Shown here piece by piece: positions 339 through 1,749 of a stretch of DNA of 64,000 bases. Under the pieces are notes generated by a model, which saw only the letters and a list, made by a program, of their open reading frames with translations, was not told the DNA's origin and did no database searches. Numbering within the stretch: the first letter of the stretch is position 1; the number at the start of each line of letters is the position of its first letter. Origin of the DNA: Sminthopsis crassicaudata (lineage: Eukaryota); NCBI RefSeq assembly GCF_048593235.1, contig NC_133618.1, positions 274,251,882-274,315,881 on the forward strand. The letters are read 5' to 3'. Position numbers and translations under genes: made by a program.

Positions 339-620
339 GCCTTCTTTTTTAGAGAATTTCCTTCCCCATACTATTTGAAAGAGAAGATTACTGAGGTGGC
401 TCTGAATGTTGAAGGGAACTAGATCTTCACCATTAGTGAAGTTATTTGGATGGATGGGTGGTTTGGAAGGCAGATTACTTCTCTAAATCCAAACCCTCAA
501 ATGAGTTCCATAAGGTTAAGTATAGCTTTATGAGTCTCTTTGCAGTTAAAAAGGGACTCACAAAATTTTAAGCTAAAACCTGTTTATAAGCCCAAAATTC
601 AATATCTTTTGAGGGTAACC

Positions 621-1125
621 TGTTAGGTTCTTACTAAGTGCTAAGTGCTAACAATTCTCTAGTTCACACCTTTGGTTCCAGCCTTTAAGGGGAGTTTACC
701 CCTTTGAAATTCTGAGGAGTTTACATATGAAAAGGAGTTTACACAACCTTTAAAAGGAGCAAGTTCATTGGTTGAAATAATTTTCCCATAAGCCCTTGAG
801 TTCTCACACACCCCTTCTCTGGGAGGATAAAAGAGACAACATTGGGCCCGGAAAAGTGAATCTACTCTAGGTCAGAGTTGGGATGGCTCTCACAAGAAGA
901 AGAATCTGGCCGGGAGATTGAGTTGAGATAGTAGATCTCCTCCCAAAGAGCGATCTGCAGTTTCTGGAGACAACAGAATATTACACTTTGGCGCCCAATG
1001 TGGGGCAAGGACTTTTGCTTATCCTGACAAGGACTTATTCTGAGCCCTTCAGAGGAGCTACCCTGGACCTTAACATTTAAGGACTTATTCTAAGCCCTTC
1101 AGAGGAGCTAGCCAGCACTTTCACA
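621..1125 (+). mobile_element. ERV (class II/betaretrovirus-like) LTR-derived element with internal tRNA-Lys PBS
   Basis: TG at 621-622, CA at 1124-1125, GTAACC duplicated at 615-620 and 1126-1131; ATTGG 767-771 and GATAAAAG 826-833 promoter-like; TGGCGCCCAATGTGGGGC at 989-1006 is 17/18 to the tRNA-Lys1,2 PBS. Confidence 0.85.
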
Positions 1126-1749
1126 GTAACCCAAACCATAGGATGACACAAAATGGAAAGGATTCTGAAAAACTAGGATCTACCTGAGGGGGAAGATAAT
1201 GAATTATATATAATGACTACTTTGTCTTTTTAGCTTTACGAGTGACAGTCTACCTTCAATACTTTTTGCAGAGTGAAATCAAGTTTTCATTGAATCCATT
1301 GAATGCATTTGTTAGCTTAAGTGCTTATACTGAAAGTTTTTTGTCCTTTATAGAAGCCTACACATAAGCATGTTAAGATTTTCTTAAACTCAGGATGGGA
1401 CATAATGTGCCAAAGACTTCATGAGGTTATACAAAAATTCCAAGTTCAAACCTATTTTGTAATCTCTGACCTTGGAAGGTCCTGACTTCCTATCATGTGG
1501 AGCTCATCAATATTTAGCAAAGGAACCACTGTACTAGATTTTTGCCCATGACATGTACATATACTGAGTCAACATGAGATATACAATGATCATAACAATA
1601 TGCTTTGATACCTAATTGTTTCATTATTTTATCTGTTTCATATATTTACATCTTATCTTTTCAACAAGACTCTGAACTCCTCCTTAAAAGGCAGGTACCT
1701 CTTTTTTTGTTATCTCCCTTAGATTCTCCTCTCCCTTTTATCCAAGCAT

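Follow-up and report, generated by a model that had tools for sequence, protein, structure and literature searches.

Retroviruses are taught as having one primer-binding site (PBS), one tRNA primer and two matching LTRs, and the textbook expectation for a solo LTR is that the PBS has been lost. The window, the whole 64-kb stretch of DNA analyzed here, holds a solo LTR that fails this expectation; a PBS is present at positions 989-1006, inside the LTR. The question is how a PBS comes to be part of an LTR and whether it still functions there. A first-pass annotation had proposed that the parental virus moved to a downstream PBS and abandoned the inner one. Comparison with relatives across the genome, which draws on integrated DNA throughout, shows that the family carries two tandem PBSs for different lysine tRNAs, and makes it very probable that these serve as alternative starts of reverse transcription and set the length of the LTR.

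Results

Anatomy of the solo LTR

The solo LTR spans 621-1125 on the + strand, starts with TG at 621, ends with CA at 1124-1125 and is bounded by the target-site duplication (TSD) GTAACC at 615-620 and 1126-1131. These features were present as first annotated, and family copies carry TSDs at the same end. The TG…CA unit lies inside the TSD with the internal sequence absent, as in a solo LTR, and there is no second copy of the LTR unit within the 64-kb window.

The core of the LTR (621-985, + strand) runs from TG to TTACA and contains a TATA-like candidate, GATAAA, at 826-831 (+). Short 3′ LTRs and short solo LTRs elsewhere stop at the end of this core with matching TSDs, and the core is likely to be the entire LTR in copies primed at the inner site. 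A 3-nt spacer, CTT (986-988, +; 2-4 nt in relatives), separates the inner LTR end from the inner PBS. The PBS 18-mer TGGCGCCCAATGTGGGGC (989-1006, +) is complementary, with one CpG-type change, to the 3′ 18 nt of tRNA-Lys(CTT), also called Lys1,2, and in aberrant relatives it runs into a whole antisense tRNA-Lys(CTT). A single C>T at a CpG separates it from the Lys1,2 PBS printed in the available text of PMC8775094. The LTR-style end at 985, the spacer and the Lys1,2 PBS with its one mismatch are thus all as the first-pass annotation described them.

The PBS is followed by a tail (1006-1075, +) that matches the R-end/U5 of LTRs of another family, designated B, and ends in ACA. Next comes a second 50-bp unit (1076-1125, +), a tandem duplication of the tail end (87% identity, period 50) that stops at the outer CA, the end that integrase would have used in the long form. 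The duplication (1029-1075 and 1079-1125) was absent from the first-pass annotation, and because of it the window copy exceeds the usual long form of about 455-465 bp by about 50 bp. Across the family, long forms measure about 460-475 nt and short forms 300-463 nt, depending on subfamily, and the cassette formed by the inner PBS and tail measures 68-93, 140-142 or 242 nt in relatives. Where the window has the 3′ TSD (1126-1131, +), proviral 5′ LTRs instead have a 3-nt spacer and an outer PBS of the Lys(TTT) type. Priming at such an outer PBS is the likely reason that the inner PBS lies inside the window LTR.

Positions 621-1125 lack a canonical poly(A) hexamer. The captured B tail begins just 3′ of B's own AATAAA and excludes it. 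In many family copies (L006, L010-L013, L019, L020 and L023) the start of the LTR is duplicated over 37 bp, which mirrors the 50-bp expansions of the long end. Positions 1-340 of the window resemble what is presumably an antisense LINE-1 fragment.

A betaretrovirus-like family with two PBSs

A genome search with the window LTR returned 6,500 first-look candidates, of which 40 were scored and had 86-92% identity. Every one of the 30 loci fetched among the best matches contains the inner PBS. Twelve of these 30, the window copy included, are long-end solo LTRs with a perfect 6-bp TSD, and eight have a second PBS directly after the long end, followed by a leader and gag. The 5′ end of a provirus is therefore ordered LTR - PBS(Lys-CTT) - tail of about 70 nt - CA - PBS(Lys-TTT) - leader - gag. 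The outer PBS matches three genomic tRNA-Lys(ttt) genes as well as the Lys3 PBS given in the available text of PMC8775094. The annotation had asked whether a further PBS follows the 5′ LTR downstream, and this Lys-TTT/Lys3-type site after the long end is that PBS.

Of the 11 natural ORFs taken from three relatives, 9 gave domain matches, which comprise Gag_p10, Gag_p24, RVT_1, RVT_thumb, RNase_H, Integrase_Zn, rve and IN_DBD_C; zf-CCHC_5 also matched, below the cut-off. We take this set of gag, reverse transcriptase and integrase models to mark beta-like viruses. In the one element checked for its 3′ region (L248), pol stops with the integrase ORF and the 3′ LTR begins about 310 nt later, so there is no space for env. 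The tRNA-Lys PBS, the 6-bp TSD and the gag/pol domains fit an abundant, env-less, betaretrovirus-like (class II) family, and the earlier class assignment holds. TSD-verified copies are 1.2-6.2 kb long, many of them about 3.2-3.5 kb, and most are internally deleted.

Two LTR lengths from one dual-PBS 5′ end

The two LTR ends were counted in samples made up of the leading 20-35 loci from lists of several hundred matches to an exact pattern; these samples are non-random, and exact patterns favor young copies. A motif at the inner end has 631 exact matches in the genome, and the first 30 were taken as an unselected sample. Ten are short solo LTRs with a TSD (≤1 mismatch) at the inner CA and three are long solo LTRs with perfect TSDs; the remainder are five short and one long 3′ LTR, three dual-PBS 5′ ends and eight other or unresolved loci. 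Among the first 30 of 579 matches anchored on the PPT, 24 are short 3′ LTRs, one is long, one is short with a PBS stub and four are truncated, so that 24/25 complete 3′ LTRs end at the inner CA. Each type of end has TSDs of its own, and both are therefore real integrase ends. The first-pass annotation had named as evidence against a solo LTR that other copies end at the equivalent of 985 and that TSDs are not mirrored at the long end. The former was found, with a TSD, in 10/30 unselected loci, whereas the latter does not hold because long copies also have TSDs.

The same dual-PBS 5′ end is found with either LTR length. The outer PBS plus leader has 70 exact genome matches, and 29 of the 30 loci read have the inner PBS upstream. 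Seventeen dual-PBS proviruses with a TSD (≤1 mismatch) were recovered from 70 fetched 10-kb regions, 12 with a short 3′ LTR and five with a long one; the other 53 regions gave no TSD-verified pair because there was no second LTR within 9 kb, the copy was truncated or the patterns missed it. Seven further short proviruses lie beyond the scripted 17 (L037, L040, L262, L269, L274, L286 and L292). The five proviruses with two long LTRs (L265, L273, L275, L279 and L285) have perfect TSDs and make it likely, as the annotation had suggested, that downstream priming copied the inner PBS into both LTRs. Very young copies of both forms exist within one subfamily, with LTR-pair identities of 410/410 (L262) and 463/463 (L286) for short proviruses and 472/474 (L265) for a long one.

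Proviruses and loci with a short 3′ LTR were also reached from the 3′ side. Both PBSs are present in all seven that keep the leader (L236, L248, L251, L252, L254, L257 and L259), and in two more the inner PBS is followed by a deletion or foreign sequence. A separate single-PBS family with short LTRs is unsupported, as the short-3′ proviruses retain both PBSs. The share that would be outer-primed ranges from about 4% to 30%, being 1/25 in the PPT-anchored sample and 5/17 among proviruses found from the 5′ side (Fisher p = 0.03), and this difference leaves the rate uncertain or subfamily-dependent.

Two unusual loci were seen in these samples. L048 has the order LTR - both PBSs - LTR with internal sequence absent and one mismatch in the TSD, and resembles a TRIM-like deletion product. 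At L018:2631-3112, the start of a further LTR lies 5 nt after a short LTR from a related subfamily, an arrangement that resembles a two-LTR-end junction.

tRNA read-through copies at both PBSs

Some copies continue from a PBS into the tRNA itself. Read-through at the inner end has 25 exact matches in the genome. ARAGORN called a tRNA in 8 of these 25 loci, seven of them as Lys(ctt), and Rfam confirmed one. Whole antisense tRNA-Lys(CTT) copies are fused to LTR ends at L086, L083, L087, L089, L090, L080, L084, L072 and L188. In L086, L072 and L188 the whole tRNA-Lys(CTT) copy is joined to the cassette tail; L086 is a solo LTR with a TSD that has the tRNA copy between the inner PBS and the tail, and L188 combines the whole copy at the inner site with Lys(TTT) read-through at the outer site. 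Several Lys(CTT) copies belong to other LTR subfamilies or to fragments of LTRs, so only some of them prove inner priming on a dual-PBS RNA. Outer-type Lys(TTT) read-through has 47 exact matches, 29 of the 30 read sit behind the cassette, and the read-through stretch matches three genomic tRNA-Lys(ttt) genes.

The two tRNAs are copied to different lengths. Lys(TTT) copies stop at 28-50 nt, mostly at 36-42, with a mode of 39 nt (10/30) that falls just before position 37. Six shorter Lys(CTT) loci were set aside for the length comparison, and 17 of the remaining 19 (copies of at least 25 nt) reach 55-76 nt, which differs from the Lys(TTT) stops with a Fisher p of 3e-11. Plus-strand synthesis of HIV-1 on tRNA-Lys3 stops mainly at m1A58 and to a minor extent at ms2t6A37, according to the available text of PMC13191261. 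The Lys(TTT) copies end just before position 37 in the manner of the ms2t6A37 termination, and they therefore behave like copies of the mature primer tRNA. The stops described here differ from those of HIV-1 in being germ-line insertions and in the second primer, Lys(CTT), having been read almost to its 5′ end. At each site, the read-through stretch appears to derive from the mature tRNA that had been bound to it.

Some read-through loci have more complex structures. At L189:1413-1489, a Lys(TTT) read-through precedes a tRNA-Lys(CTT) copy that is oppositely oriented. L096 / L177 (G000:C1:123458474-123461638) has an inner PBS of the Lys(TTT) type, followed by the tail, the outer PBS and read-through into Lys(TTT); at some point the other tRNA probably primed at its inner site. 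A TSD-flanked provirus has a near-whole 5.8S rRNA (Rfam RF00002) directly after the inner PBS (L258:7263-7410; G000:C1:111634813-111644812), a host rRNA captured in the course of reverse transcription.

Origin of the cassette

The tail identifies the donor of the captured stretch. A tail motif has 594 matches, and the first 30 comprise 20 B LTRs, eight loci with PBS plus tail behind various LTR subfamilies and two others. AATAAA lies just upstream of the tail in 12 of the 20 B LTRs. The B tails are identical to window 1006-1075 at 50-56 of 70 nt, the B sequence upstream has no match to 621-985, and 6 of 21 B copies have their own TSD and a TG start. The stretch captured between the inner PBS and the outer CA is thus the R-end/U5 tail of family B instead of the virus's own old leader, as had been supposed. 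Three B 5′ LTRs have, after the PBS, the short word that opens the tail, and this word may have been a ready microhomology for a template switch. The idea that the spacer is a relic of a whole tRNA, which came from L057, was dropped; the tail ends 20/30 loci of an unrelated LTR family. Rfam and ARAGORN detected no tRNA in the window locus or in L005.

Single-PBS Lys(TTT) relatives were found at 27 matches. A midpoint-rooted leader/gag tree was built from 55 of 74 pieces; the 19 omitted lack leader homology, and the single- and dual-PBS groups were sampled by different patterns. Twelve single-PBS rows are on longer end branches, one dual-PBS clade (18 rows, support 100/100) lies among them, and a second dual-PBS clade (25 rows) differs in its gag. 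The simplest reading is that elements of a Lys(TTT) background gained the cassette and that recombination spread it, with the Lys-TTT site and leader as the older residents and the Lys-CTT cassette as the newcomer, although the root of the tree is not fixed. Template switches would probably have placed the Lys-CTT PBS and the family B U5 tail ahead of the resident Lys-TTT PBS. Because of its midpoint rooting and the two changes of cassette state that it requires, the tree does not prove gain as opposed to loss of the cassette. The family B leader (L125, L141 and L143) is similar to that of one of the dual-PBS gag clades (L014, L017 and L219), which suggests further recombination between the two lineages.

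Discussion

Proposed alternative priming and its rivals

The first base added to the primer sets the right end of U5 in the retroviral reverse transcription scheme (available text of PMC13191261). Two LTR ends consequently point to two priming sites. Priming at the inner PBS (Lys-CTT) would give a short LTR that ends at the inner CA, and priming at the outer PBS (Lys-TTT) would give a long LTR that contains the inner PBS. The window copy would be what recombination between two long LTRs left behind, and since a long solo LTR can only come from two long LTRs, an outer-primed provirus is its inferred parent. It is likely that the inner PBS is the more used site and that the window copy is a product of the rarer outer priming.

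Both routes would yield the same genomic RNA. The cassette would thus be inherited, and restore itself, whichever site is used. The inner and outer PBSs are alike at 13/18 nt with a shared start of 8 nt, and one may speculate that a plus strand made from one PBS would pair poorly at the other. With so few matching positions, poor pairing might both spare the cassette from deletion and give rise to the read-through failures. The solo LTR itself had been suggested to be a minimal packageable unit, an idea that finds no support because the PPT and the 3′ copy of R are absent; under the standard retroviral scheme it would be primable and not copied to completion. The window copy is one LTR with the PPT absent, a structure other than the LTR-PBS-PPT-LTR of a TRIM-like unit.

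Three other accounts of the locus were weighed against alternative priming. Practically no weight falls on a truncated provirus with a chance 6-mer match, which for one given 6-mer has a probability of 1 in 4096; a PBS after an LTR-like end agrees with it and nothing else does, and it conflicts with the 12/30 best-match loci that are long solo LTRs with perfect TSDs at the same end and with the five proviruses that have two long LTRs. The reading of the first-pass annotation, a one-time switch that left the inner PBS dead in U5 and made the short LTRs an older, separate family, is hard to believe. Long solo LTRs and long-long proviruses do occur, many inner PBSs have 1-2 nt insertions and older single-PBS relatives exist, all of which it would accommodate. 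The dual-PBS 5′ end is, however, paired more often with a short 3′ LTR, with matching TSDs and an LTR identity of up to 100%, and young TSD-flanked dual-PBS proviruses of this kind (L262, L286 and L293) refute the switch. An abandoned inner site is also at odds with 24/25 PPT-anchored 3′ LTRs, 12/17 proviruses and 10 short against three long solo LTRs ending at the inner CA, and with whole tRNA-Lys(CTT) copies that adjoin the inner site. The single-PBS relatives, found with a search pattern built for Lys-TTT, carry that type and not the inner one, and an intact single Lys-CTT leader behind the LTR is absent in 30 unselected loci.

It is likewise very unlikely that only the outer site primes and that short ends arise by integrase cutting at an internal CA, by later deletion or by recombination with a co-packaged single-PBS genome. 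The priming start is not readable from integrated DNA alone, and template mixing does occur, as LTR pairs differ internally (the two inner PBSs of L285 are different); both points leave room for such a scheme. Against it, the short ends are the majority and stop exactly at the inner CA, where they have a TSD, and plus-strand synthesis can run on into tRNA-Lys(CTT) at the inner end only if this tRNA was bound at that site. A young single-PBS donor with a window-type LTR is absent in 30 unselected loci, and of the 20 single Lys-TTT loci that were read, 1 (L103) has a related LTR. Alternative priming at both sites would account for the two ends and for the tRNA copies.

Why the cassette persists is a separate matter, and the most likely answer is that it restores itself and is tolerated. 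A benefit of the dual PBS, in the form of two primer pools or escape from tRNA-fragment blocks, is possible. In the adaptive form of this idea both sites work and the two pools hedge against tRNA scarcity or blocking 3′-tRNA fragments, a suggestion that refines and is compatible with alternative priming and that we regard as tentative. It gains from the cassette being kept behind several LTR subfamilies, in two gag lineages and in the youngest copies, and from inner-PBS insertion variants that recall variants interpreted as tRF escape for SERV-2 and mouse ERVs in the available texts of PMC8775094 and PMC7472051. A neutral self-restoring cassette, however, predicts equal persistence, and the 29/30 Lys(TTT) read-through failures on dual-PBS elements may point to a cost. 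Inner-PBS insertion variants, for which a halving is expected in short-form proviruses, were counted in 15/20 long and 5/12 short forms, a trend (p = 0.13). The broader proposition, that a mammalian ERV lineage with recent activity evolved a heritable switch between two primers that spread as a hedge against primer supply or tRNA-fragment silencing, is accordingly a conjecture that we consider less probable than its negation.

Relation to known systems

Engineered retroviral vectors with two PBSs were reportedly described by Voronin and Pathak in 2004 (J Virol), with both PBSs able to initiate. Dual initiation in these vectors is said to delete the stretch between the like sites. They are laboratory constructs, whereas the arrangement described here is natural, its sites differ in tRNA and its cassette persists. 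Switching between Lys3 and Lys1,2 PBSs is described for SERV, with one PBS per provirus and lineages that differ (PMC8775094), and PBS switching between lineages, again with one PBS per provirus, is described for ETn/MusD (PMC7472051). As far as the available parts of these papers go, the likeness extends to the same two lysine tRNAs, insertion variants of the Lys1,2 PBS and a 50:50 inheritance of the tRNA copy, and the difference is that tandem sites lie on one genome here and give two LTR lengths. Drosophila Gypsy also has two primer-tRNA sites per retroelement RNA; according to the available text of PMC1635307 they are tRNA-Lys2 binding sites, one at the 5′ end and one at the 3′ end, of which the latter is dispensable. 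The Gypsy sites bind the same tRNA without alternative LTR ends in that account, whereas the present family has two tRNAs and two ends.

The closest described relative may be compared by description only. MEBrv 3 of dasyurid marsupials is a class II element with gag-pro-pol, without env and very abundant, with some identical LTRs, one described LTR length of 469 nt and a full length of about 7.3 kb (available text of PMC11334065). It shares class II, the absence of env and abundance with the family studied here, and 469 nt is within the LTR range; as for full length, the TSD-verified copies here span 1.2-6.2 kb, with internal deletions in most. The terms "PBS," "primer binding" and "tRNA" are absent from the main and supplementary text of PMC11334065, and "PBS," "primer binding," "tRNA" and "solo" are absent from the text of PMC13641905. 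The literature matches listed include no natural ERV whose two PBSs lie in tandem and are used in alternation, a scope that leaves repeat libraries and subscription papers outside. PBS switching between lineages, engineered two-PBS vectors and the distant sites of Gypsy are known already, and a tandem, alternately used natural pair would be a new variant.

Implications

Primer choice appears to be recorded in every insertion as LTR length, and germ-line primer choice thus becomes countable from an assembly, by subfamily and by age. The read-through copies are an in vivo readout of reverse transcriptase stops on two modified tRNAs. If the two-primer switch is real, the genome would hold both records, primer choice in short and long LTRs and stops at germ-line tRNA modifications, and the family would be a natural test of the trade-off of priming against silencing proposed for tRNA fragments. 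Hundreds of solo LTRs may retain a tRNA-complementary site. Repeat libraries would split or misbound such a family, and LTR finders would miscall its PBS. The LTR-tRNA-Lys(CTT) fusions are a source of tRNA pseudogenes made by reverse transcription, and ARAGORN mistook such chimeras for tRNA genes at the 8/25 loci where it made a call.
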